From a bacterium (lineage in GTDB: Bacteria; Patescibacteriota; Minisyncoccia; Phycocordibacterales; Phycocordibacteraceae): DNA of 64,000 nucleotides. Position numbers and translations under genes: made by a program. Shown piece after piece: positions 434 through 59,337 of this stretch. The notes under the pieces are model-generated. The model did not search any database. It saw nothing but the letters and a program-made list of their open reading frames with translations, and was not told the origin of the DNA. Each line of letters starts with the position of its first letter. The stretch's first letter is position 1. Location of the stretch: contig JAHFML010000003.1 in assembly GCA_023269085.1 (NCBI GenBank), positions 52,863 through 116,862 on the forward strand, in the 5' to 3' direction.

Positions 434-730
434 ATGCAACCGACGATTCAAGAAATTGCAGAGAAGGCGAAGCCCGTATTCGAGAAGTACGGCATCTCGT
501 ATGCTGCGCTCTATGGGAGCATTGCGCGCGGTGAAGCGCGCCCAGATAGCGATGCTGATCTGCTTGTCGAGTATGACCGTCCGCTTGGGTTTGAATATTT
601 CGATATGCGCCGCGAGCTTGAAGAGGGTCTCGGCCGGCCGGTCGACATCATCACCGACGCGAGCATGAACAAGTTTTTGCGTCCGTACATCGTTCCCGAC
701 CTCACCCCCATCTATGGAGAAAAGCGATAG
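434..730 (+). CDS. mnt: Minimal nucleotidyltransferase (MNT) antitoxin of a HepT/MNT pair
   Basis: GS...ARGEARPDSDADLLV nucleotidyltransferase motif; overlaps the downstream HepT gene by 17 nt. Confidence 0.85.
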   Translation: MQPTIQEIAEKAKPVFEKYGISYAALYGSIARGEARPDSDADLLVEYDRPLGFEYFDMRRELEEGLGRPVDIITDASMNKFLRPYIVPDLTPIYGEKR

Positions 731-1064
731 TCCGTACCTCGCGCAGATTGCGGAGAATGTCACGAAGATACGAGCCTTTGTCGGCGACGAAGACTTTGAC
801 GCGTTCCTCGCGGACGGGAAGACGCAGAGCGCCGTCTTGATGCAGCTCCAGCAGATCGGCGAGCTCGCGAAGCGTGTTTCGCCGCAAGCGCAAGCGGAGA
901 CGCCATCGGTGCCGTGGCGCGATGTCACTGACTTTCGCAATGTGGTGGCGCATGAATATTATTCGGTGCAGTTGCCGGTCGTGTGGGAAATCATCACCGA
1001 TCAGCTCGCGCCGCTTGAAGTCGCTTGTGTTGAATATCTGAAAGCCCACCCGATACCGGAGTAG
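714..1064 (+). CDS. hepT: HepT (DUF86) RNase toxin
   Basis: C-terminal R-x4-H-x-Y motif (FRNVVAHEY); translationally coupled to MNT. Confidence 0.85.
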   Translation: MEKSDSPYLAQIAENVTKIRAFVGDEDFDAFLADGKTQSAVLMQLQQIGELAKRVSPQAQAETPSVPWRDVTDFRNVVAHEYYSVQLPVVWEIITDQLAPLEVACVEYLKAHPIPE

Positions 1065-1164
1065 GAGCCGCGGCCGGCAGAGCCGGCCGCGTGCTTGTTG
1101 ACGCTTCGGGGGCGAGGTGATACATTACTCGTACGCTCTTCGGGGCTTTATTTTTTACTGCTAC

Positions 1165-1434
1165 ATGGCAAAGACATCCCAGCTCGCGCGAATCGTCAAG
1201 AAGACGAAGCTCGTCGCTAAATATGCTGAAAAGCGCGCCGCCCTCAAGGCGGCGGGCGATGTCGCTGGTCTGCAGAAGCTCCCGAGAAACTCCTCGCCGG
1301 TCCGCTTGAAGAGCCGTTGCGCGATTACTGGTCGTTCGCGTGGCTATATGCGCGCCTTCGGCGTCTCGCGCATCCAGTTCCGCGAGATGGCGCTCGAGGG
1401 CAACATTCCGGGCGTTAAAAAAGCATCATGGTAA
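1165..1434 (+). CDS. rpsN: 30S ribosomal protein S14
   Basis: [29 protein letters not shown]...[39 protein letters not shown]; start taken at the internal Met of ORF 1117. Confidence 0.95.
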
Positions 1435-1832
1435 CAGACCGCATCGGCGATTTCATCATCCGCTTGCAGAACGCCGCGAAGGTGGGCAAGCGCGAGGCCA
1501 CTATGCCGTATTCGGCGCACGTGCTCGCTATCGCCAAGAAGCTCAAGAGCCTCGGCTTCATCGAGACGGTCGAGGTCGAAATAGTCGGCGATTCGACCGT
1601 GAAGAAGAACATCCTCGTCACGCTCGCCTTCGACGCGAAGGGGGCGCCGCGCTTGCGCGGCGTGAAGCGCATCAGCAAGCCGGGTCGTCGGCTCTATGTG
1701 TCCGCGGCCGAGGCGCACACGGTGAAGGGCGGTACGGGGAAGCGCATCATCTCGTCGTCGACCGGCATCGTCTCCGACGTCGAAGCCCGCAAGGGGAATG
1801 TCGGTGGCGAAAATCTCTTTGAGATCTGGTAG
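1428..1832 (+). CDS. rpsH: 30S ribosomal protein S8
   Basis: [16 protein letters not shown]... S8 signature; overlaps rpsN by 7 nt. Confidence 0.95.
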
Positions 1833-3790: not shown

Positions 3791-5057
3791 TTCTTTTTTG
3801 CATAAGGTGAAGCTGGCGCTCGGCGATGCCGAGATCCGCTTCCGCATCCTCTTCGTCGTCGGCGCACTCGCCATCTTCCGGCTCCTTGCGGCTATTCCCA
3901 TCCCGGGAGTCGACAAGGCGGCGCTCGCGCAATTCTTCGCGAGCAATCAGTTTTTCGGTCTTTTGAATATCTTCTCGGGCGGCGGGCTCGCGCATCTCTC
4001 TATCGTGATGCTCGGCGTCGGCCCTTACATCACCGCTTCTATCGTGATGCAGCTCGCGACGATCGTCTTCCCGCAGGTGAAGGAGGCGTACTTCGAAGAT
4101 GGCGAGGCCGGTCGCGCGAAGTTCATCGAGTGGAGCCGCCTCCTCACGATACCGATCGCGGTCTTGCAGGCTATCGGCTTCCTCTTCTTGCTTCAGAATC
4201 AGCATGTCATCGGTCACTTGAGCACCGTCGCTCTCATCGCGAACATCGCAATCGTCACAGCCGGCTCGCTCCTCCTCATGTGGATCGGTGAGCTCGTGAC
4301 CGAGTTCGGTATTGGCAACGGCGTGTCGCTCATCATCCTCGCGGGTATCCTTGCGAGTGTACCGGCGAGCATCTCGCAGAGCCTCTTCGCCGCCTCGGCC
4401 GCGAACATCCCGGCCTATCTCGGCTTCATCATTCTCGCGGCCGCGATGATCTATGCGGTGGTGGTCGTTTCGGATGCCGAGCGTTCGATACCCATAGCGT
4501 ACGCCCGCGCCGTCCGCGGTGCGGCGATGGCGCAGGGAGCCGCAACGTATCTCCCGATTCGTCTCCTCCAAGCCGGCGTGATACCCATCATCTTTGCGCT
4601 CTCGCTCCTGCTCATCCCGCAGATGGCGCTCTCGATGCTCTCGACTCTGCACGTCTCCTTCGCACAGGGCGCGGCGCTCTGGTACACCGCCTTCCTCTCC
4701 AACCCGTGGCAGTACGGCGCTATCTACTTCGCGCTCGTGGTGCTCTTTACCTACTTCTATACCGCCGTCACCTTCGAGCCGAAGCGCGTCGCCGAGAATC
4801 TCCAGAAGACCGGCGCCTTCGTCCCGGGCGTGCGCCCCGGCCGCGAGACCGAGGAGTATATCAATAACGTGGTCAATCGCGTGACGCTTCCCGGAGCCTG
4901 CTTCCTCGGCCTCCTCGCGGTCTCGCCGTCGATTATCCAAGGGCTCACCGGCGTCACGACGCTCGTCCTTGGCGGCACGGCGCTCCTCATCGCGGTGCAG
5001 GTCATCCTCGACCTCGTGAACAAGATCGACGCCCAAGTCTCGCTTCGAGAATACTAA
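3783..5057 (+). CDS. secY: Preprotein translocase SecY
   Basis: MINSFLHKVKLALGDAEIRFRILFVVGALAIFR...MLGVGPYITASIVMQL...; 10 TM; ATG at 3783. Confidence 0.95.
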   Translation: MINSFLHKVKLALGDAEIRFRILFVVGALAIFRLLAAIPIPGVDKAALAQFFASNQFFGLLNIFSGGGLAHLSIVMLGVGPYITASIVMQLATIVFPQVKEAYFEDGEAGRAKFIEWSRLLTIPIAVLQAIGFLFLLQNQHVIGHLSTVALIANIAIVTAGSLLLMWIGELVTEFGIGNGVSLIILAGILASVPASISQSLFAASAANIPAYLGFIILAAAMIYAVVVVSDAERSIPIAYARAVRGAAMAQGAATYLPIRLLQAGVIPIIFALSLLLIPQMALSMLSTLHVSFAQGAALWYTAFLSNPWQYGAIYFALVVLFTYFYTAVTFEPKRVAENLQKTGAFVPGVRPGRETEEYINNVVNRVTLPGACFLGLLAVSPSIIQGLTGVTTLVLGGTALLIAVQVILDLVNKIDAQVSLREY

Positions 5058-5101
5058 AGCACGCGCCGCTTCGCGGCGTGTGGCGTGCTACTATAACAAC
5101 C

Positions 5102-33700: not shown

Positions 33701-33733
33701 CGCGGCGGGGCAGAGCCCCGCCGCGCTTTTGTG
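33701..33733 (+). terminator. Rho-independent terminator after groEL
   Basis: cgcggcggggc agag ccccgccgcg + cttttgtgg. Confidence 0.7.
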
Positions 33734-33746
33734 GTACAATCGAGTT

Positions 33747-33995
33747 ATGAATAAGTTAGCTAACCAGCCAACAAAGCGCCCTTCTTTTGCCGTCGAGTTC
33801 GACCGCGAGGTGGATGGTCGCTGGATTGCCGAGATAACTCGACTCCCGGGCGCTATGGCCTATGGCGCGACGAGGCGCGAGGCACTTGAGCGCGTCTATG
33901 CGATCGCACTCCGCACGCTCGCCGACAATGTCGAGCAGGGCGCTCTCTTTACGCCGGTCTCGCGCATGTTCGGCTATGGAATGGCGAGCCGTTAA
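33747..33995 (+). CDS. hicB: HicB-family antitoxin
   Basis: FAVEFDREVDGRWIAEITRLPGAMAYGATRREALERVYAIAL. Confidence 0.75.
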   Translation: MNKLANQPTKRPSFAVEFDREVDGRWIAEITRLPGAMAYGATRREALERVYAIALRTLADNVEQGALFTPVSRMFGYGMASR

Positions 33996-34185
33996 GGCTC
34001 CGCGCGTGTTGAAGGCGCTCATTGCGAAGGGTTGGGTTATCAAACGACAGAAAGGTTCGCATCGTATTCTCGCGCGGCATGGCCAACCGAATTTTACTTT
34101 TGCTTTTCATCTACAAGAAGAAATCGGCCCGCACATGCTTGTGCGCATCGCTAAACATACCGGGCTCACATCAGAGGATTTGTAG
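33976..34185 (+). CDS. hicA: HicA-family mRNA interferase toxin
   Basis: MEWRAVKAPRVLKALIAKGWVIKRQKGSHRILARHGQPNFTFAFHLQEE...; overlaps hicB by 20 nt. Confidence 0.8.
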   Translation: MEWRAVKAPRVLKALIAKGWVIKRQKGSHRILARHGQPNFTFAFHLQEEIGPHMLVRIAKHTGLTSEDL

Positions 34186-34331: not shown

Positions 34332-35165
34332 ATGAGGTATACTTTTGCTATGAATAATGAGCGGCCTCAAAAATCGCTTTCATCTGAAGAGAATATTGAA
34401 CGAGAACAACCAACTCGAACACCAGAAGTTCACCATGACTGGCCATTGATTACCTATGAGTACTCAAGACTGTATCTCGACCTAGCAGACAAACACCTTG
34501 AGAAAGATGACCCGCTGCGTGCAAGAATTGTTGACTATTTTTCCGAGTCGGAACGACTAGAACATGAGTTGAGAACGCTGTTTGCAGGACTCGATGACGA
34601 CGAGATTCATCAGAGAATGGAAGATGTGGCGAAACAGCTTTTCGATAGAACATTCTTCGTTGAACATTACCAGAAAATCTTTGAGCGTATGGACGCCCAC
34701 AATGGAATAAAGGAACGGACGATCGAGCGTCCAATGGCGACGCAGGAAGAATACGATCTCGGCACCTATAAAGAAGGATTGGAACGGCAAGTAAGAGACG
34801 CTTGTTTCCTTTTGAGCAAAAAGGGTTACAAGACGTTCGAATCAGGCTTTCGCGAGAAGGAGGACGATCGAGATCAGTATCTCGGTGTGAGTAACAAGAC
34901 AGTTGAAATACCCGATGAGGTTATCGCGCGTCTCAAAGAAAAACAATTCGAGGTGTCGATTATTCGCCAAAATGACAGGACTATCATAAATATTCATCCT
35001 GAAAAGACAGACGCGGTTACTCTGGAGGAATGGGAGGAGATCTGGAATGAATTGGCACGAGGTATGCCTGCGGCGAAATCAGAAGATTTTTCTGGAGTCA
35101 AAATATACGAACTCCACCGCACCTTCCGGGAACGACAAGATGTTCTGAGGCGTTTGCATTTCTAA
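34332..35165 (+). CDS. Hypothetical protein (277 aa), low-GC
   Basis: Acidic, Glu/Arg-rich; no recognisable domain; GC clearly below flanking genes. Confidence 0.5.
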   Translation: MRYTFAMNNERPQKSLSSEENIEREQPTRTPEVHHDWPLITYEYSRLYLDLADKHLEKDDPLRARIVDYFSESERLEHELRTLFAGLDDDEIHQRMEDVAKQLFDRTFFVEHYQKIFERMDAHNGIKERTIERPMATQEEYDLGTYKEGLERQVRDACFLLSKKGYKTFESGFREKEDDRDQYLGVSNKTVEIPDEVIARLKEKQFEVSIIRQNDRTIINIHPEKTDAVTLEEWEEIWNELARGMPAAKSEDFSGVKIYELHRTFRERQDVLRRLHF

Positions 35166-35326: not shown

Positions 35327-36532
35327 ATGGCAACAGCAGAATTCAATCGTGCGAAGCCGCACATGAACGTGGGCACCATCGGCCACGTTGACCACGGCAA
35401 GACGACCCTCACCGCCGGCATTCTCAATATCCTCTCGAAGCTTACGGCCGAGGGCTATGCCGCTCGCGTCGAAGGCGTCGACAACATCGACAGCGCACCA
35501 GAGGAGAAGGCGCGCGGTATCACTATCGCGCTCCACCACTCTGAGTATGAGTCGCCGAACCGCCACTACGCGCACATCGATGCGCCGGGCCACGCCGACT
35601 ATATCAAGAACATGATCACCGGCGCCGCCCAGATGGACGGAGCGGTTCTCGTGGTCGCCGCGACCGACGGCGTGATGCCGCAGACGCGCGAGCACATCCT
35701 CCTCGCAAAGCAGGTGGGCCTCAAGAAGCTTATCGTCTTCCTCAACAAGGTGGACATGGTGGACGAGCCGGACCTCATCGACCTCGTCGAAGAAGAGATC
35801 CGCGAGCTCCTCACCAAGCAGGGCTACGACGGCGCGAATACGCCGATTATCCGTGGCTCGGGGCTCAAGGCGCTCGAGGCAACTGACGTGAGCGACGAAT
35901 GGGCGCAGAAGGTGAAGACTCTCGTCGACACGATGGACACTTACTTCGATCTCCCTGAGCGCGAAGTCAACAAGCCGTTCCTCATGCCGATCGAGGACAT
36001 CTTCTCGATCGAAGGTCGCGGCACCGTCGTCACGGGTCGCATCGAGCGCGGTATGGTCAAGGTCGGCGAAGAAGTCGAGATCATCGGCATCAAGCCGACG
36101 ATGAAGTCGACCGTCACCGGTATCGAAATGTTCAACAAACAGCTCTCGGAGGGTCAGGCAGGCGACAACGCCGGCATCCTCCTCCGCGGCACCAAGAAGG
36201 AGGATGTGCATCGCGGCCAGGTCCTCGCGAAGACGGGCTCGGTCACGCCGCACACCGACTTCGAGGCCGAGGTCTATGTCCTTGGCAAGGACGAAGGCGG
36301 TCGTCACACGCCGTTCTTCTCGGGCTACAAGCCGCAGTTCTATATCCGCACCACCGACGTGACGGGCGAAGTCACGCTCCCGGAGGGTAAGGAGATGGTC
36401 ATGCCGGGTGACACCGTCACCTTCAAGGTGAAGCTCACCGCACCGGTCGCGCTCGAAGCGCAGCAGCACTTTGCTATTCGCGAAGGCGGCCGCACCGTCG
36501 GCGCCGGCGTCGTGACTAAGATCACGGCATAA
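35327..36532 (+). CDS. tuf: Elongation factor Tu
   Basis: [22 protein letters not shown] GTPase motifs. Confidence 0.98.
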
Positions 36533-36556: not shown

Positions 36557-36991
36557 ATGGAACCAACCACGGAAGTAAAACCGAAAGCGACTAAAACTTC
36601 CTCAGGAAGTTCGTCCGACACTTCGCGAAGCGAAGTGTCTAGGAAGCGTGTTTCGAAGAAGGTCGCGGCCGTCGCTCCGGTAGTCGAGCACAAGCTCCGG
36701 ATCCGGGTTCGCGCCTATGAGCACAAGATTCTCGATCTCTCGGTGAAGCAGATCATGGACACAGCGGCGCGTTTCGACGCGGTGATCGTGGGCCCTGTCC
36801 CGCTCCCGACCGAGATCAAGCGTTGGACAGTGAACCGCTCGACCTTCGTCCACAAGGACGCGCGCGAGCAGTTCGAGATGCGCATCCATAAGCGCCTCAT
36901 CGACATCCGGAACCCGTCGCCGAAGGTGATCGAGGCCCTCACGAACCTCAATCTCCCCTCCGGTGTGACGATTGATGTGAAGATGGTGTAG
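36557..36991 (+). CDS. rpsJ: 30S ribosomal protein S10 with ~42-aa Lys/Ser-rich N-terminal extension
   Basis: ...HKLRIRVRAYEHKILDLSVKQIMDTAARFDAVIVGPVPLPTEIKRWTVNRSTFVHKDAREQFEMRIHKRLIDI. Confidence 0.9.
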   Translation: MEPTTEVKPKATKTSSGSSSDTSRSEVSRKRVSKKVAAVAPVVEHKLRIRVRAYEHKILDLSVKQIMDTAARFDAVIVGPVPLPTEIKRWTVNRSTFVHKDAREQFEMRIHKRLIDIRNPSPKVIEALTNLNLPSGVTIDVKMV

Positions 36992-37004
36992 ACGCCAAGA
37001 AAAA

Positions 37005-37045
37005 AGCACGCGGGCGCCCCAGAGGGGCGCCCGCGTGCTTTTTTG
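37005..37045 (+). terminator. Strong rho-independent terminator directly after rpsJ
   Basis: agcacgcgggcgcccc agag gggcgcccgcgtgct + tttttg. Confidence 0.85.
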
Positions 37046-37093
37046 CTCCAACTGTGGTATCAGAAGAGAGGATTCACAACCAAGGAGACAGAG

Positions 37094-37552
37094 ATGTCAC
37101 AGACACCAGAACTTCGTATCATCTATTACGACACAGGCCTCCCGCGGGAGATTTCTAGTGAAATCCGCAGGAAGAATGCGGCAACTTGGGAAGAAACGAC
37201 TCTTCGAGGCGTCTTCCATTCGATTACGGTGAAGGGTGCCGTCGTTTCGGCAAAAATCGTCTTTCGCTGTTTTGTCGAGACCAAAAGCGCGACGACAAGG
37301 AAGCCGTCCGGTTTTTTCGCAAGATTCATGAAGCGAGAAAGTGATTCTGCCACAGAAGTCATCGAGGTGGTCGATCGGTGGAGTTGTGTCGGCGAAGATC
37401 TAGTGGGCATCGATTTCTGCGGTGAGTACAAACGTTTTTTGCTCGATACCATGAAGCGGAAAGGTATTGCGGTATTGGATACGACAATCAGTACCGTCTT
37501 CGACCCCATCCACGCACGGCTCTTCTATGAGTTGCGGAAGAAAAAGAAGTAA
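37094..37552 (+). CDS. Hypothetical protein (152 aa) inserted between rpsJ and rplC
   Basis: SD AAGGAGA 5 nt upstream of ATG; own terminators on both sides; lower GC; no recognisable domain. Confidence 0.55.
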   Translation: MSQTPELRIIYYDTGLPREISSEIRRKNAATWEETTLRGVFHSITVKGAVVSAKIVFRCFVETKSATTRKPSGFFARFMKRESDSATEVIEVVDRWSCVGEDLVGIDFCGEYKRFLLDTMKRKGIAVLDTTISTVFDPIHARLFYELRKKKK

Positions 37553-37560
37553 CCCCTCTC

Positions 37561-37582
37561 ACGGCCCGCTCGCGCGGGCCGT
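37561..37582 (+). terminator. Terminator-like hairpin after the inserted gene
   Basis: ggcccgctcgcgcgggcc followed by gttgttct. Confidence 0.45.
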
Positions 37583-37597
37583 TGTTCTGCCCGGGAT

Positions 37598-37626
37598 TTG
37601 CAAATTTTGCCTACCTCGTGTAGAGT
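37598..37626 (+). promoter_or_regulatory. Candidate sigma-70-type promoter for rplC-rplD-rplW-rplB
   Basis: TTGCAA -17 nt- TAGAGT. Confidence 0.35.
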
Positions 37627-37665
37627 GCTTGAAACGCTACGTACCTCGCCTTGAGGGACCTCCAG

Positions 37666-37700
37666 CAAATCGCGCCACGCGATTGCTGTGGCGCGATTTG
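37666..37700 (+). promoter_or_regulatory. 13-bp-stem leader hairpin immediately upstream of rplC (possible autoregulatory/attenuator element)
   Basis: caaatcgcgccac gcgattgct gtggcgcgatttg. Confidence 0.45.
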
Positions 37701-37711
37701 CTTTGACCCAC

Positions 37712-38347
37712 ATGAAATTCATCCTCGCCACCAAAGAGAACATGACCCGCGTCTTCGCGGAGGATGGTCGCGCCTATGCGGGCACTATCCTCTCGGTCGC
37801 GCCGATGACGGTCACGCAGGTGAAGACGGCTGAAGGGAAGGACGGCTACGCGGCGGTACAGGTGGGCACCGGCGAACGCAAGACGAAGAACATCAGCAAG
37901 GCGGTCTTGGGCCACACGGGTGGCAAGGGCTATGAGGCTATCCGCGAATTCCGCCTGCCTACCGGTCAGGCAGGTGATGGCGACGTAGCCGAGGTGGGCG
38001 CGACGCTCGATGCCTCAGTCTTCGCGAAGGGCGATATGGTCGAGGTCTCGGGTCTCACCAAGGGCAAGGGCTTTGCCGGCGTGGTGAAGCGCCACGGCTT
38101 CCACGGTGGCCCGCGCTCGCACGGTCAGAAGCACACCGAGCGCTCGCCGGGCTCTATCGGCGGCTCAGGCGGGCGCGCCGGTGGGCGCGTCGTGAAGGGG
38201 AAGAAGATGGCGGGCCGCATGGGTACCGATCGGGTGACGGTCGCCAATCTCAAGGTCCTCGCGGTCGACGCAAAAGCAGGGATGATAGTCATCTCGGGCG
38301 CCGTGCCGGGTCGTCGCGGCACACTCCTCGAAGTCGTGTCCGCATAA
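37712..38347 (+). CDS. rplC: 50S ribosomal protein L3
   Basis: MKFILATKENMTRVFAEDGRAYAGTILSVAP... Confidence 0.95.
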   Translation: MKFILATKENMTRVFAEDGRAYAGTILSVAPMTVTQVKTAEGKDGYAAVQVGTGERKTKNISKAVLGHTGGKGYEAIREFRLPTGQAGDGDVAEVGATLDASVFAKGDMVEVSGLTKGKGFAGVVKRHGFHGGPRSHGQKHTERSPGSIGGSGGRAGGRVVKGKKMAGRMGTDRVTVANLKVLAVDAKAGMIVISGAVPGRRGTLLEVVSA

Positions 38348-38357
38348 TTTCAATACT

Positions 38358-39080
38358 ATGACTACTGCAAAAGACATGAAAGAGATAAAGACGGTCGCGC
38401 CGACGACATTCGAACTCCCTGTCTATTCGATGGAAGGGAAGAAAGTCTCGACGGCCATACTCCCGGAAGCGATTTTCAATGCACCGTGGAAGACTGATCT
38501 CGTGCACCAGGTGACCACCGCGATGCAGGCCAACCTGCGCCAGAACCGCGCCCACACCAAGGACCGCGCCGAGGTCTCGGGCGGTGGCCGTAAGCCGTGG
38601 AAGCAGAAGGGCACCGGCCAAGCGCGCCATAGCTCGACCCGTTCGCCGATATGGCGTCACGGCGGCGTGACCTTCGGCCCGCGCAATGAGCGCGACTACA
38701 GCGAGAAGATCAACAAGAAGATGCGCATGGGCGCGCTCCTCTCGGTGCTCTCTCACAAGGCGAAGGACGGTGAAATTATCTTGGTTGACTCATTCGGCTT
38801 CACGGCACCGAAGACCGCACTCGCGAAGACGGCGCTCGGGAAGCTTGCTGTCGGTGCCGGTGCAGAAGCTTTGGTGACGAAGAAGAAGAACGCCGCGCTC
38901 CTCGCACTCGCCGCGTACGACGAGAACACGATCAAGAGCTTCGCCAACTTCGGCAATCTCACGACCGAGGAGGCGCGCAATCTGAACCCGCTCTCGATCA
39001 TGTCCTGCAAGTATCTCATTATCGAGAAGCCGGTTGAGACGTTTGCCGCTCTCGCGACGCGCCTCGGCAAAAATACATAA
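38358..39080 (+). CDS. rplD: 50S ribosomal protein L4
   Basis: L4 family; ...RAEVSGGGRKPWKQKGTGQARHSSTRSPIWRHGG. Confidence 0.95.
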   Translation: MTTAKDMKEIKTVAPTTFELPVYSMEGKKVSTAILPEAIFNAPWKTDLVHQVTTAMQANLRQNRAHTKDRAEVSGGGRKPWKQKGTGQARHSSTRSPIWRHGGVTFGPRNERDYSEKINKKMRMGALLSVLSHKAKDGEIILVDSFGFTAPKTALAKTALGKLAVGAGAEALVTKKKNAALLALAAYDENTIKSFANFGNLTTEEARNLNPLSIMSCKYLIIEKPVETFAALATRLGKNT

Positions 39081-39086
39081 TTATAT

Positions 39087-39452
39087 ATGGCAATCTTCGG
39101 CGACAAAAAGAAAGAAAAGAAGGAGGTTACGAGCGTGGTACGTCACGCGCACGCGGTCAACGCGACCCACGGGAGCGCGCACGACATCATCCGCGCGCCG
39201 TGGTTCTCTGAGAAGGCGCTCCTCGGCACCGACAAGGGCGTGTATGTCTTCGCCGTCGCCCCGCGCGCAACCTCGGCACAGGTCGCGGGCGCCATCCGCG
39301 AGATCTACAAGGTGACGCCGAAGTCGGTCCACCTCGCGAACTTGCCGGGCAAGAAGAAGGCGATGCGCTCGCGCCACGGCATGGGGCAACGCGCCGCACG
39401 GAGCAAGGCCTATGTCTATTTGAACGCGGGCGACAGCATCCAGTTTGCCTAA
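39087..39452 (+). CDS. rplW: 50S ribosomal protein L23
   Basis: HDIIRAPWFSEKALLGTDKGVYVFAVAPRATSAQVAGAIREIYKV. Confidence 0.93.
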   Translation: MAIFGDKKKEKKEVTSVVRHAHAVNATHGSAHDIIRAPWFSEKALLGTDKGVYVFAVAPRATSAQVAGAIREIYKVTPKSVHLANLPGKKKAMRSRHGMGQRAARSKAYVYLNAGDSIQFA

Positions 39453-39472: not shown

Positions 39473-40321
39473 ATGAAAACCTACAGCCCAACCACCAAGA
39501 GCCGCCGATCGATGACCACCTTGCCCTACAAGGAGCTCCTCTCGGGCGACGCGCCCTACAAGCCGCTTCTCGCCGCTAAGAAGCGTCAGGGCGGTCGCAA
39601 CGCCTTCGGCCGGATAACGACGCGTCATCAAGGTGGCGGGCACAAGCGCCGTTTGCGCGAGATCGACTTCTCCTTCAACAAGAAGAACATTCCCGCCAAG
39701 ATCGAGACGGTCGAGTATGATCCCTTCCGCTCGGCCTTCATCGGCCTCGCGCTCTATCGCGATGGCGAGCGTCGCTATGTCGTCCTGCCGAAGAGCGTCG
39801 GCGTCGGAGCGACTTTCGTCGTCGCCGAGGACGCGCCGCTCACGCCGGGCAACCGTCTTCCGATAGGGAAGATCCCGGTGGGCACCTCGATTTATAATAT
39901 TGAAATCGCTCCGGGCACAGGCGCCGCGCTCGTCCGTTCGGCGGGCACCTTCGCCGAGGTGGTCGCGCACGACGCGGGCTATGCGCAGATCAAGCTCCCC
40001 TCGACCGAGATCCGCCGCGTCTCGGATCTCGCATGGGCCAGCATCGGCGCGGTCGGCAACGAAGAGTACAATCTCGTCGTCATTGGCAAGGCCGGTCGCT
40101 CGCGTTGGCTCGGCATCCGCCCGACAGTGCGCGGCACCGCGATGAACCCGGTTGACCACCCGCACGGCGGCGGTGAAGGGCGTCAGGGCCGCGGGCTTCG
40201 TCGCGCCAAGACCAAGTGGGGTAAGCCGAGTGGCAAGGGCCAGAAGACGCGCACGCCGAAGAAATACTCAAACGTCTTCATCGTCTCGCGCCGCAAGGTC
40301 GGCAAGAAGCGCAAGGGCTAA
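39473..40321 (+). CDS. rplB: 50S ribosomal protein L2
   Basis: GRNAFGRITTRHQGGGHKRRLREIDF...VRGTAMNPVDHPHGGGEG. Confidence 0.97.
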   Translation: MKTYSPTTKSRRSMTTLPYKELLSGDAPYKPLLAAKKRQGGRNAFGRITTRHQGGGHKRRLREIDFSFNKKNIPAKIETVEYDPFRSAFIGLALYRDGERRYVVLPKSVGVGATFVVAEDAPLTPGNRLPIGKIPVGTSIYNIEIAPGTGAALVRSAGTFAEVVAHDAGYAQIKLPSTEIRRVSDLAWASIGAVGNEEYNLVVIGKAGRSRWLGIRPTVRGTAMNPVDHPHGGGEGRQGRGLRRAKTKWGKPSGKGQKTRTPKKYSNVFIVSRRKVGKKRKG

Positions 40322-40334
40322 TTTCACAAAAACA

Positions 40335-40370
40335 GAAAGCACGCGGCGCCTCCGGCGCCGCGTGCTTTCT
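40335..40370 (+). terminator. Rho-independent terminator after rplB (the cluster ends here; no rpsS follows)
   Basis: gaaagcacgcggcgcc tcc ggcgccgcgtgctttc. Confidence 0.75.
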
Positions 40371-40459: not shown

Positions 40460-41374
40460 ATGAAAGAACTAACTCGTTCAACGCTCGTCGCCATCGTCGC
40501 CTCATCGCTCTCCCTCCTCGCCTTCTACGCGGTGAGCGCTGGCGCACAATCAGCCTGGACTCCAGCTCCAGCTAACGCTCCCTCAGGCAACGTGGCAGGC
40601 CCCCTCACCACGGGCGCAACCGGTCAGAGCAAAGCCGGTAACCTCATGCTCAACACCGACGGCACCCTCGCCAACGGCCTCATCGTCGCGAATGGGAATG
40701 TGGGTATTGGGACGGTGGCGCCATACTTGCCACTCGTCGTTTATAGTTCGTCAGCCAATGGTTCTGCTGTAGCGCTTGACAGACCGGCTGGCTTGGCTGG
40801 GATGTATCAGGTAAGAACAAACGGATCTCCTCGATGGGTTTTTGGTGCAGACCAAACAACAGAGAGTGGCTCGAATTCCGGATCAAACTTTCGAATTATC
40901 GGGTATAATGATGACGGTCTTGGATTAAATAACGCATTAACAATAAATAGATCCTCCGGCAACGTCGGTATTGGAACGACGAATCCGAACGTCTCGAAGG
41001 GGGCTGGCGGGTATGTCGACGCCAAAGACGTCTATCTCCGTGACGCCGGGAAGTGGGCGAGTGAGGTTGGTGGGAGTGGGAGTATCGTAGCAGGATGCGC
41101 AAAAAATAGGAGAGCAGTTGATTTTTGCGGAAGAGTTAACAACAACCCAGCAGGACTAATCGCTGATGTTTGTTGGGGAGGCGCATCATTTACTACTATT
41201 GAAATAGGCACCCTCGGAGCGGATTGGGGAGCGAGTACCGTTTATACGACAAAGACATTTTCTTGCCCGAGCGGATCCACTGTTCGACTCGTTGGGACTA
41301 TGGGCGAAGGCTGTGGGAGTAACTCATATTCGTCGTCTAGCGTATCACTGGATACCTTTTTCTGTATCAAATAA
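40460..41374 (+). CDS. Secreted Gly/Asn-rich repeat protein (fibre/surface-protein-like)
   Basis: Signal peptide (LVAIVASSLSLLAFYAVSAGAQS); repeated NGNVGIGT / SGNVGIGTTNP motifs; C-terminal Cys-rich region. Confidence 0.6.
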   Translation: MKELTRSTLVAIVASSLSLLAFYAVSAGAQSAWTPAPANAPSGNVAGPLTTGATGQSKAGNLMLNTDGTLANGLIVANGNVGIGTVAPYLPLVVYSSSANGSAVALDRPAGLAGMYQVRTNGSPRWVFGADQTTESGSNSGSNFRIIGYNDDGLGLNNALTINRSSGNVGIGTTNPNVSKGAGGYVDAKDVYLRDAGKWASEVGGSGSIVAGCAKNRRAVDFCGRVNNNPAGLIADVCWGGASFTTIEIGTLGADWGASTVYTTKTFSCPSGSTVRLVGTMGEGCGSNSYSSSSVSLDTFFCIK

Positions 41375-41520: not shown

Positions 41521-42267
41521 ATGGCCTCGCTCTCTTCGATACCAACATCATTCGTTCCGCATCAGGCGGCGGTTGAGCGCCGTCAATTCAGCAGCGACTT
41601 CTCAAGCGCGTTCTCCTTCTTCGCCTACCTCGTGCTCCTCATCGTCTTCGCGCTCGCTCTCGGCGTATTCTTTTACGGCCGCATCTTATCCTCGACACAA
41701 GCGTCCAGGGAGGCTGAACTTACCAAAGCCGAAGCGGCTATCGACCAGGCGACCGTGGACGATTTCGTGCACTTGCGCGATCGCCTCAATTCCTCGCAGT
41801 CTTTATTGGGGAAGCATGTCGCGTTATCGAACGTGTTCTCGACGCTTCAGACCATCCTTCCTTCAAGCGTGCGCCTCTCGTCTCTGCACATAGCGCTCGA
41901 TGATACTGGTGCAGTCAAGATAGAGGGGAGCGGTTTCGCGAAGAGCTTCAATTCACTCGCCTTCGCATCGGAAGTGTTCTCTGCGGACAGCAGTATCAAA
42001 GAGGTCATATTCTCCAGGATAGGCGTCACAAAAGATTCGACGATCGCGTTCAATCTCGCGGCGTCTATCGACCCAAAGCTGATTGCTTATTCGCCGAGCA
42101 CGAGCGTGCCGGATCTCTCTGGCATGTCGAGCGTTCCGAGCATGCCGGCGTTGTCACTGCCAACCGTAGCGACTTCGAGCATTATGGCGACATCAAGCGC
42201 TCCCGCCAAGGTCGCGTCATCGTCTAAGCCGACAAGCAAGCCGGCCGCTAAGTCTCGCGTACCATGA
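41521..42267 (+). CDS. PilN-like type IV pilus assembly protein
   Basis: Single N-terminal TM then periplasmic domain; Ser/Pro-rich C-terminal tail. Confidence 0.45.
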   Translation: MASLSSIPTSFVPHQAAVERRQFSSDFSSAFSFFAYLVLLIVFALALGVFFYGRILSSTQASREAELTKAEAAIDQATVDDFVHLRDRLNSSQSLLGKHVALSNVFSTLQTILPSSVRLSSLHIALDDTGAVKIEGSGFAKSFNSLAFASEVFSADSSIKEVIFSRIGVTKDSTIAFNLAASIDPKLIAYSPSTSVPDLSGMSSVPSMPALSLPTVATSSIMATSSAPAKVASSSKPTSKPAAKSRVP

Positions 42268-58932: not shown

Positions 58933-59007
58933 GTTGCAAAGCGATTGAGAAGCGGTATAGTGTACCTATCGCAGAGACGCAGGGTCTCTTGCGGTTATGA
59001 GAATATA

Positions 59008-59297
59008 GCGGGGTAGAGGAGAGGTACCTCGGGAGGCTTGAGTTATTCGGGCGTGCGCGCGAGCAATTGCGCGTAAGATCATCTGTCAAATTCGGCGAAC
59101 CCCTCTCGCGAAAACGAAAGGCAACACCGAGCCAAGCTTTGCGAATAATCGCAAGGAAGGTGTAGAGACTAGACGGCAGACATCCTGAGCGTAGTCGAAG
59201 GATGAAGGCATAGTCCAGACCACAAACGAAAGGCAATGAAAATTGTAGTGGTAAGCATAACCTCCAGACCCTGGTTCGATTCCAGGCCCCGCAACAA
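59008..59297 (+). ncRNA. ssrA: Candidate tmRNA-like RNA (tRNA-like T-arm plus acceptor-like 3' end); identity uncertain
   Basis: 3' end ...CCTGG-TTCGATT-CCAGG-CCCCGCA-A mimics T-arm plus acceptor strand; complementary GCGGGG ~285 nt upstream; 410-nt ORF-free interval; followed by a strong terminator; tag ORF not confidently identified. Confidence 0.4.
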
Positions 59298-59306
59298 ACA
59301 AAACAG

Positions 59307-59337
59307 AAAGCCGCCGCAAGGCGGCTTTCTGTTTGCT
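59307..59337. terminator. Bidirectional rho-independent terminator
   Basis: gaaagccgcc gcaa ggcggctttc + tgtttgc. Confidence 0.75.

Follow-up and report, generated by a model that had tools for sequence, protein, structure and literature searches.

The junction between the ribosomal protein genes rpsJ and rplC was analyzed in a 64,000-nucleotide (nt) stretch of contig JAHFML010000003.1 (assembly GCA_023269085.1), referred to below at its full length as the window. Here the S10 cluster is cut by a terminator behind rpsJ, an unrelated gene occupies the gap, and rplC follows with a promoter and a structured 5′ leader of its own. Taken as a whole, it is fairly probable that the S10 split is clade-wide, that the leader of rplC-rplD-rplW-rplB is a feedback element for ribosomal proteins (r-proteins), and that the rpsJ–rplC gap is a slot for exchangeable cargo genes. 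The original prediction had described the cut, the inserted open reading frame (ORF) of 152 amino acids (aa; hereafter ORF152) and a new promoter and leader hairpin before rplC. Since all five elements that it listed are present within a few bases of where it placed them, the observation itself holds. Its view of the insertion as the cause of the break, however, does not.

The rpsJ–rplC junction is among the most conserved in bacteria. The window belongs to a Candidatus Kaiserbacteria genome (Patescibacteria). Relatives were taken as the loci encoding the closest uL3 proteins, and come from metagenome-assembled genomes labelled Candidatus Kaiserbacteria, Paceibacterota, or Patescibacteria, with further contigs from metagenomes. 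For gap lengths, the clade set comprised 19 genomes or contigs that contain rpsJ as well as rplC and have a uL3 identity of at least 73% (the rplC product is 73–92% identical among clade relatives). The rpsJ–rplC distance is 159–2125 bp in 19/19 of these loci, with a median of ~770 bp and 720 bp in the window. Among 112 more distant loci the median is 170 bp, with 30 distances above 300 bp and 9 above 1 kb. Thus, the synteny comparison upheld the interruption as real, and at the same time revealed it to be common to all 19 relatives carrying both genes rather than particular to this genome. In 2 empty sites (L007 and L013) nothing lies between the units: the U-tract of the rpsJ terminator runs directly into TTTTCTTGCATCTTTT, the −35 region of the rplC promoter, and then into the leader. 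In L004 rpsJ is absent within 4 kb upstream of rplC (the gene found there is tsf-like by sequence, without a domain search), and promoter and leader are intact. Because the break is shared across the clade, including the empty sites, it reads as an ancestral, fixed state of a Kaiserbacteria-level clade that was not caused by ORF152. Likewise, because a terminator hairpin and not rpsS stands directly 3′ of rplB in the clade relatives examined, rplC-rplD-rplW-rplB is by gene order a free-standing four-gene operon. A full-text literature search found neither the rpsJ–rplC split nor the leader described for Patescibacteria. The junction is not invariant, which corrects an assumption made in phylogenomics and binning.

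The promoter candidate TTGCAA-17-TAGAGT named by the original prediction is present at 37598–37626. Its score against the sigma-70 consensus is 8/12, below the cut-off of the generic scanner, which hence did not list it. According to an alignment of the 170 nt upstream of rplC across the clade, the −35 hexamer is TTGCA(T/A) in 21/22 relatives and the −10 hexamer TA(G/C)AGT in 22/22, with a fixed 17-nt spacing and a variable spacer sequence. Since hexamers and spacing are kept while the spacer varies freely, TTGCAW-17 nt-TAGAGT bears the signature of a real promoter, with presumed activity.

The leader (~80 nt) is found in 22/22 relatives and consists of CGCUAYG, hairpin P1, CCU(C/A)(C/U)(A/G)GC, hairpin P2 (14 pairs), and usually UUU(A/G), followed by the ATG. 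P1 is variable in length and sequence, with its pairing kept. The hairpin that the original prediction had placed at 37666..37700 is P2, which spans 37664–37702 with a 14–15-bp stem and ends 10 nt before the ATG; the 86-nt stretch containing it has a folding free energy (dG) of −35.8 kcal/mol (z = −5.5), and 0/200 shuffles are as stable. RNAalifold applied to a MAFFT alignment predicts both P1 and P2, with two-sided changes in 9/19 pairs. A covariance model (R1) built from 14 genome-derived sequences recovered 8 further, non-seed copies, all directly 5′ of rplC (61–94 bits). Over 22/22 relatives the model scores 51–95 bits on the sense strand and 18–35 bits on the reverse strand. The 64-kb window holds a single copy, and a search of the rplC upstream regions of loci whose uL3 identity does not exceed 57% gave none. 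In the 22-sequence alignment, standard pairs fill 95.4% of pair cells versus 33–45% with partners slid by 1–3 columns, 10/19 pairs show compensatory (two-sided) changes, and 0/500 column shuffles reach any of five measures; this alignment was fitted to the model, which biases the counts towards the structure, and the independent MAFFT/RNAalifold result agrees with them. A promoter of its own and a structured leader, as originally proposed, are thus supported for rplC, the structure being backed by covariation in 22 genomes. What fails is the word "new," since both are conserved clade-wide and ORF152 is one of ~15 alternative cargos.

Regarding the molecule under selection, non-Watson-Crick pair cells comprise 24 G·U/U·G versus 0 A·C/C·A, so selection on the pairing acts at the level of the sense-strand RNA rather than of duplex DNA; a DNA-palindrome operator was rejected on the same counts. 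In 17/22 relatives only 7–12 nt separate the 3′ end of P2 from the AUG, and transcription of rplC must therefore pass through the leader. Two features of r-protein leaders (r-leaders) are present, namely a position between a conserved promoter and rplC in 22/22 clade genomes, given the predicted transcription start, and a conserved secondary structure backed by covariation. Mimicry of the ligand's rRNA site is a frequent though not an obligatory trait of r-leaders; neither the window nor the retrieved loci contain a 23S rRNA of the clade. The leader belongs to none of the r-leader families of Rfam release 15, L4-Archaeoglobi included. At gathering level, Rfam 15 reports no leader family in the whole window, and at E ≤ 10 the interval 36900–37800 yields only chance hairpin-type matches (microRNA, small RNA, Thr-leader) with 12–33 bits against cut-offs of 40–90.

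P2 has a further peculiarity in its loop. Loop B (9–10 nt; window 37679–37687, GCGAUUGCU) nearly repeats the last 9–10 nt of the 3′ arm C (...GCGAUUUGC) and, as a result, complements the base of the 5′ arm A (GCAAAUCGC). Nascent A+B alone reaches −9 to −12 kcal/mol in 21/22 sequences, compared with a mean of −3.7 ± 2.1 for shuffled loops. In five sequences A changes to GCAGAACGC, C to GCGUU(C/U)UGC, and B to GCGUCU(C)UGC, and exchanging loops between AAAU-type and AGAA-type arms costs 3–5 kcal/mol. These values suggest that the leader can take either a short, early A:B state with C free or a long, terminator-like A:C state, and that both are maintained in evolution.

The leader is probably a previously undescribed r-protein leader or attenuator controlling rplC-rplD-rplW-rplB, with presumed ligand and mechanism. 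According to the proposed scheme, the tuf–rpsJ unit would end at its strong intrinsic terminator, while the four-gene unit would start from a separate promoter, TTGCAW-17 nt-TAGAGT, and stop at the terminator behind rplB. A:B would pair first, during transcription, leaving two exclusive states, A:B and A:C, whose balance would be biased by an operon-encoded protein. P2 has a G+C-rich upper stem and a 3′ strand running into AUUUGCUUU, 7–12 nt before an AUG that has no Shine-Dalgarno motif (SD); its formation would either stop RNA polymerase (attenuation) or hinder 30S loading. By shifting the A:B/A:C balance or stabilizing P2, an operon product would exert negative feedback on the synthesis of uL3, uL4, uL23, and uL2. 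The first candidate ligand would be uL4, for which the E. coli S10 leader and the Archaeoglobi rplC leader set a precedent, and the second uL3, as the product of the first gene. The idea that the leader substitutes for L4 autoregulation, already raised in the original prediction, is the leading hypothesis and plausible by analogy.

Several points weigh against this scheme. The transcription start is a prediction, as are termination at P2 and any binding of a protein. P2 fails a simple terminator rule: only 3 T occur in the 8 nt past the full stem, the generic scanner does not call it, and a U-rich run emerges only if the A-U pairs at the foot of the stem are assigned to the tail. In 5/22 genomes an extra 33–207 nt lie between P2 and the AUG, and 3 of the five have no U-rich tail. 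Neither simple attenuation nor occlusion of the ribosome-binding site by P2 fits all members. Most core genes have no SD, so an SD-less rplC start is unremarkable, and the notion that it marks rplC as special was dismissed. As for the decoy loop, the evidence is suggestive and not stronger because the arm/loop covariation is mainly one shared change (AAAU to AGAA in 5 sequences), which may be a single event. Finally, the ligand may be something other than an r-protein, or there may be none at all (e.g., if the leader is a stability element).

Some loci differ between P2 and the rplC ATG. An additional element of 95–207 nt occupies this place in L003 (3858–4000), L015 (3794–4000), and L010 (1–94). 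In all 3 it ends in a helix (GAGGUUUUU...AAAAACCUC-AUG) that would sequester the start region, with (G/A)AGGUUUUU pairing with AAAAACCU(C/U) directly before the AUG in L003 and L010, and GAUUUUCU with AGAAAAUC in L015. This suggests that the regulatory solution was remodelled in these loci, where the additional piece may provide a second level of control, exerted on translation. L006 and L014 have a different insert in common (~30 nt). Beyond the clade, 22/71 more distant Patescibacteria loci (e.g., L106, L062, L120, and L153) have an unusually stable structure (z < −3) within 80 nt before rplC, such as, in L106, a 13-bp hairpin whose end lies 8 nt from the rplC ATG. A hairpin before rplC may thus be a wider theme of Patescibacteria with diverged sequences.

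The E. coli S10 leader (~170 nt) lies upstream of rpsJ, contains two hairpins, and acts by L4-mediated attenuation and translational control with involvement of NusA. To our knowledge, this S10/L4 leader is confined to Gammaproteobacteria, and we know of no experimental work on r-protein balance in bacteria of the Candidate Phyla Radiation. The rplC leader resembles it in being a structured 5′ leader of an operon encoding uL3, uL4, uL23, and uL2, in having two adjacent hairpins, and in placing a terminator-like distal hairpin just upstream of the first start codon, which suits both attenuation and control of translation. In contrast to the E. coli element, which controls the whole S10 operon from upstream of rpsJ, it lies downstream of rpsJ and a strong terminator, and rpsJ, co-transcribed with tuf, stays outside the regulated unit. 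It is also shorter (~80 versus ~170 nt), no sequence or covariance-model similarity to the E. coli leader was detected, and its loop is a decoy of its own 3′ arm. In position it matches the Archaeoglobi L4 r-leader candidate, which lies directly upstream of rplC, rplD, rplW, and rplB and for which uL4 was proposed as ligand by precedent, with a "?" rating (Eckert & Weinberg 2020, PMC7247131, Table 1; general r-leader mechanisms are covered in the same paper). That motif, however, is archaeal and unrelated; the rplC leader matches no Rfam model at E ≤ 10, and its support is stronger than the "?" rating implies. By position and two-hairpin design the rplC leader is thus r-leader-like, and by sequence it falls outside the S10/L4 family and every Rfam family. 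It is a compact, well-covarying, and testable candidate with an unusual built-in decoy of its own 3′ arm and four possible ligand proteins, and is short enough for in-vitro transcription, binding, and probing assays.

As for the gap itself, ~15 unrelated cargos are found in 17 filled sites. Because the content differs in nearly every clade genome, the gap is a hypervariable cargo slot. Examples include a TrmB-family regulator with a membrane protein (L005), a sugar transferase (L083), a PaaX-like protein (L086), a cargo that includes a YafQ-type toxin-antitoxin pair (L001), and many orphans. Homologous cargo pairs among the 17 occupied sites are limited to the window and L001 (51%) and to L003 and L015 (28%). 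In relatives, the rpsJ terminator is immediately followed by an extended −10-like motif, TGnTAnnnT, at the start of the cargo gene, and the cargo genes have a strong GGAGG SD, unlike most core genes of the window, which have none. Copies of the rpsJ-type terminator stand between successive cargos, with three in L163, two in L091, and partial ones (CCCGCGTGCUUUUC) in L001. In L163 the order is rpsJ 3′ end, terminator, 95-aa membrane protein, terminator copy, 254-aa membrane protein, terminator copy, P0004 (a relative of ORF152), hairpin, rplC promoter, and leader start. Such copies are compatible with gene insertion at the terminator as well as with recombination across it, and an exchange of cargo by way of the invariant flanks would also fit.

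In the proposed picture, DNA between the rpsJ terminator and the rplC promoter would belong to neither unit and would form a neutral slot that collects and exchanges accessory genes. Each cargo would bring its own extended −10 promoter and SD, and often a terminator copy, by a presumed insertion route; ORF152 would be one such cargo, a fast-evolving orphan protein. A bolder version combines all of these elements: genes would be captured without an integrase at the palindromic rpsJ terminator, which would be copied each time and so build terminator-gene arrays, cargo would be swapped between strains through the ribosomal flanks, and the rplC leader, as a decoy-arm attenuator with the two states A:B and A:C, would both insulate and feedback-regulate the operon. 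In this full form the proposal is rather doubtful. No integrase, transposase, or attC-like site was identified at the slot, although no systematic integrase search of the window was made. An integron attC reading of the hairpins at cassette boundaries was disfavoured, as the boundaries are perfect terminator palindromes and the cargos have their own −10 and SD.

Like integration hotspots and cassette arrays, the slot has conserved flanks (rpsJ and rplC) around a short interval that holds other genes in almost every genome. Its cargo genes are small, often lower in GC content, and include toxin-antitoxin pairs and orphans, and terminator copies separate successive cargos (L163 and L091; partially in L001). 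In contrast to integron cassettes, every cargo comes with a promoter, and the position within the S10 ribosomal cluster is unusual. What accompanies the leader is thus an accessory-gene hotspot in an unexpected place, with a presumed mechanism, and not a new kind of system. Within the clade the junction is a hotspot for strain-specific genes bracketed by ideal recombination anchors, which makes it handy as a marker for following strain variation and horizontal transfer among uncultured Patescibacteria.

Other core-operon boundaries in the genome likewise collect accessory genes. A HepT-like toxin gene (714–1064) lies directly upstream of rpsN, a HicA toxin gene stands between groEL and tuf (33729–34185), overlapped by an upstream 88-aa ORF with no Pfam match, and a low-GC (0.44–0.46) orphan of 277 aa is located just before tuf (34332–35165). 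A separate observation concerns L057, where a 3.4-kb rpsJ–rplC gap holds a 367-aa ORF (689–1792, minus strand) that is reverse transcriptase-like (group II intron/retron type) by sequence, without a domain search.

Regarding ORF152, the original prediction had described a lower-GC ORF with its own SD, which agrees with the data (37094–37552; AAGGAGA at 37082–37088; GC 0.49–0.53 versus 0.58–0.69 in the flanking ribosomal genes). Its "own terminator" stands in part: a hairpin is present at 37561–37582, but it is weak, with z = −2.0, 9/200 shuffles equally stable, and a poor U-tract. This hairpin is kept in L001 and in L163, the latter with a compensatory G-C to A-U change, and looks like a degenerate copy of the slot terminator. 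ORF152 itself has no match in Pfam, PHROG, or PADLOC. The homology search called for in the original prediction did find relatives: among 5.8 billion clustered proteins and 1.84 billion representatives the family comprises six proteins, namely ORF152 and five relatives of 149–150 aa. An arrangement universal among relatives, with a known r-protein-associated gene in the gap, had been named as the outcome that would contradict the prediction; ORF152 is not universal and is not a known r-protein-associated gene.

Family members occupy the slot in the window, L001, and L163, and are found elsewhere in L164. P0002 (51–52% identical to ORF152) lies in the same slot in L001/L002, followed by an extra pair of antitoxin and YafQ-like toxin, and P0004 (29%) in the same slot on L163. 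P0005, P0007, and P0008 (27–28%) belong to a low-GC organism and stand beside unrelated genes. Since P0004 is closer to these non-slot members (44–48%) than to ORF152 (29%), the slot copies do not appear to form a simple vertical lineage. A tblastn search with all six members found no gene remnants in other slots. In comparison with its L001 orthologue, ORF152 has a nonsynonymous divergence (dN) of 0.36 and a synonymous divergence (dS) of ~2.7 (saturated), with a ratio of 0.13, while dS of the flanking ribosomal genes is 0.4–0.8. By these estimates ORF152 is a real gene under purifying selection, which either evolves very fast or is exchanged.

AlphaFold reached a mean predicted local distance difference test score (pLDDT) of 42 with 2 sequences. 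AF2 with 6 sequences gave a pLDDT of 79 and a predicted template modelling score (pTM) of 0.69, for a model in which an N-terminal hairpin is followed by a long antiparallel sheet and then by two C-terminal helices. Fold searches with this model returned no significant match; the weak ones recur on actin-capping protein and on coat proteins of single-stranded RNA phages. As for the Leviviricetes coat fold, the size (~130–150 aa), the N-terminal hairpin, the antiparallel sheet, and the two C-terminal helices are alike and the weak matches recur. The matches, however, are not significant (template modelling score TM ≤ 0.46, E ≥ 0.03), so no coat-protein fold is assigned to ORF152; there is no sequence similarity, and an IMG/VR scan with the family profile found no viral relative.

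Four other explanations were weighed against a clade-wide split with a regulatory leader and a cargo slot. The one implicit in the original prediction takes the break as a recent, genome-specific insertion of a mobile element that carried ORF152 into an intact junction. ORF152 does have a lower GC, a strong SD unlike its neighbours, and promoter-like and terminator-like signals of its own, and its dS versus L001 is saturated while that of the flanks is not, which suggests exchange. Terminator, promoter, and leader, however, are present in all clade members including the empty sites, no transposase, integrase, or terminal repeats flank ORF152, and a family gene sits in the same slot in L001 and L163. 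For the break itself the explanation is refuted; it is viable only for the arrival of ORF152 in a pre-existing slot, and overall it is very unlikely. Comparably little speaks for ORF152 as a dedicated partner of the rplC operon, i.e., a small RNA-hairpin binder, built like the coat proteins of single-stranded RNA phages on a beta-sheet platform with two C-terminal helices, that would act on the hairpins of the neighbouring leader or terminators. This very rare family has four distinct lineages, of which three lie in exactly the rpsJ–rplC slot, the hairpin behind the gene directly adjoins the −35 box of rplC in both the window and L163, the weak fold matches recur to Leviviricetes coat proteins (including MS2 and PP7 coat-RNA complexes), and ORF152 is under purifying selection. 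Nevertheless, 18/21 clade genomes keep the leader without any ORF152-family gene, P0005, P0007, and P0008 adjoin unrelated genes, and the slot members are not monophyletic (P0004 is 44–48% identical to non-slot members versus 29% to ORF152). The cargo family of L003/L015 shows an equal pattern, with the same slot and ~28% identity, and such a role of ORF152 must be considered most improbable.

The remaining two explanations concern the leader. It could be a free-standing small RNA gene of ~75 nt (promoter, P1, P2) that ends at P2 and acts in trans, with rplC expressed by read-through. A conserved promoter followed by a compact two-hairpin RNA with a terminator-like hairpin and a UUU(A/G) tail would suit this, as would the absence of a match to any known cis-regulatory family. 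The element, however, always stands immediately 5′ of rplC in the same orientation in 22/22 genomes, even in L004 where rpsJ has moved; there is one copy per 64-kb window, and in the 17 genomes with a short leader, the 7–12 nt from P2 to the ATG show no other rplC promoter. A small RNA is thus quite unlikely. The hairpin could also be a DNA operator for a dimeric transcription factor, or a terminator insulating rplC from cargo read-through. P2 is indeed a near-perfect inverted repeat close to the promoter, and cargo with weak terminators (e.g., 37561–37582, z = −2) would otherwise read into rplC. Against both stand the 24 G·U/U·G versus 0 A·C/C·A cells expected of sense-strand RNA and the reverse-strand scores of 18–35 bits versus 51–95 on the sense strand. 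Moreover, the element lies downstream of the conserved −10 and so cannot insulate the operon's own promoter, it is present in the cargo-free L007 and L013, and P1 and the single-stranded motifs are conserved too, which makes an operator or insulator hardly credible.

The layout of the region in the window is given in Table 1.

Table 1. Features of the rpsJ–rplC region and the adjoining operons in the window.
Feature	Position	Strand	Basis or details
tuf (EF-Tu), first gene of the tuf–rpsJ transcription unit	35327..36532	+	Pfam GTP_EFTU and domains 2 and 3, E 5e-61
rpsJ (uS10), with a 43-aa N-terminal extension	36557..36991	+	Pfam Ribosomal_S10, E 3.6e-33, residues 48–142
Predicted intrinsic-terminator hairpin closing the tuf–rpsJ unit	37000..37044	+	perfect 21-bp stem, loop AGA, A6/U6 flanks
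Putative extended −10 promoter of ORF152, TGgTATCAG	37055..37063	+	inferred; L001 has TGgTATTAA at the equivalent position
SD motif AAGGAGA of ORF152	37082..37088	+	sequence
ORF152, 152-aa cargo gene of a rare orphan family	37094..37552	+	homologues, dN/dS
Weak hairpin 3′ of ORF152, 9-bp stem, poor U-tract	37561..37582	+	dG −21, z = −2.0
Predicted rplC operon promoter: −35 TTGCAA, 17-nt spacer, −10 TAGAGT	37598..37626	+	−35 37598–37603, −10 37621–37626
rplC 5′ leader RNA	37635..37711	+	CGCUACG 37635–37641, P1 37641–37659, linker CCUCCAGC, P2 37664–37702, UUUG tail
P2 segments		+	5′ arm A 37665–37678; decoy loop B 37679–37687; 3′ arm C 37688–37701
rplC (uL3)	37712..38347	+	Pfam Ribosomal_L3; ATG 10 nt past P2; no SD
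rplD (uL4), candidate leader ligand by analogy	38358..39080	+	Pfam Ribosomal_L4, E 2.3e-57
rplW (uL23)	39087..39452	+	PF00276 in the gene calls of the source contig
rplB (uL2), final gene of the rplCDWB operon	39473..40321	+	Pfam Ribosomal_L2_N and L2_C
Predicted terminator hairpin closing the rplCDWB operon	40334..40370	+	arms related to the rpsJ terminator (AAGCACGCGG...)

The tuf–rpsJ gap is 24 nt long and hairpin-free. The strong terminator at the end of rpsJ, originally placed at 37005..37045, is a perfect 21-bp hairpin (37000–37044) with a dG of −46.1 kcal/mol (z = −7.2; 0/200 shuffles as stable), formed by a 21-nt 5′ arm of A-tract and G+C and a 21-nt 3′ arm ending in U6. With its G+C-rich stem, U-tract, and position at a gene end, it is predicted to act as a Rho-independent terminator. 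Relatives have a hairpin at the equivalent position after rpsJ, downstream of the conserved motif GCCAAGAAA. The hairpin behind rplB has a dG of −34.8 kcal/mol (z = −8.5), and beyond it lie unrelated genes, namely those of a 304-aa secreted-looking protein and of a type IV pilus/type II secretion system. The spc-type genes (rpsN, rpsH, rplF, rplR, rpsE, rplO, secY, and adk) are 30 kb off, behind the HepT toxin gene. An assembly artefact or chimera was ruled out, since the exact ORF152 protein with the same neighbours occurs on three independently assembled contigs; the arrangement is also found in L001 and L002.

The terminator arm AAGCACGCGG(G)CGCC is common to the post-rplB hairpin (40334–40370) and the rpsJ terminator, and similar ...CGCGUGCUU hairpins occur at 1068–1100 (before rpsN) and 5057–5085 (after secY). 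It thus seems that one terminator family serves the ribosomal-operon boundaries of this genome, while relatives use AAAACACACAACCGCCC...GGGCGGUUGUGUGUUUU after rpsJ. Compared with its counterpart in L001 (636–680), the rpsJ terminator differs in the arms only at the outermost base pair, and in the loop by AGA versus UCU. Since UCU is the exact reverse complement of AGA, the loop difference resembles the outcome of a palindrome inversion more than that of three separate substitutions.

A few observations concern the window outside this region. Upstream of ~25 genes (e.g., at 41521, 44950, and 1847) an SD is mostly missing, and several have TATACT/TATAAT only 5–8 nt ahead of the ATG, so that their mRNAs may be leaderless or nearly so. 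ARAGORN reports no tRNA in the whole window. A tRNA-like gene (59003–59307, plus strand) is apparently split by a group I intron (RF00028, 59030–59235, 56 bits), flanked by the 5′ acceptor strand GCGGGGU and, on the 3′ side, by the T-arm GGUUCGAUUCC, then CCCCGCA, and then a terminator. As for the 304-aa protein (40460–41374, plus strand), it has no Pfam match, and in PHROG it matches the tail-fibre family phrog_4013 (E 2.6e-14) and a tail-spike family (4.4e-07).

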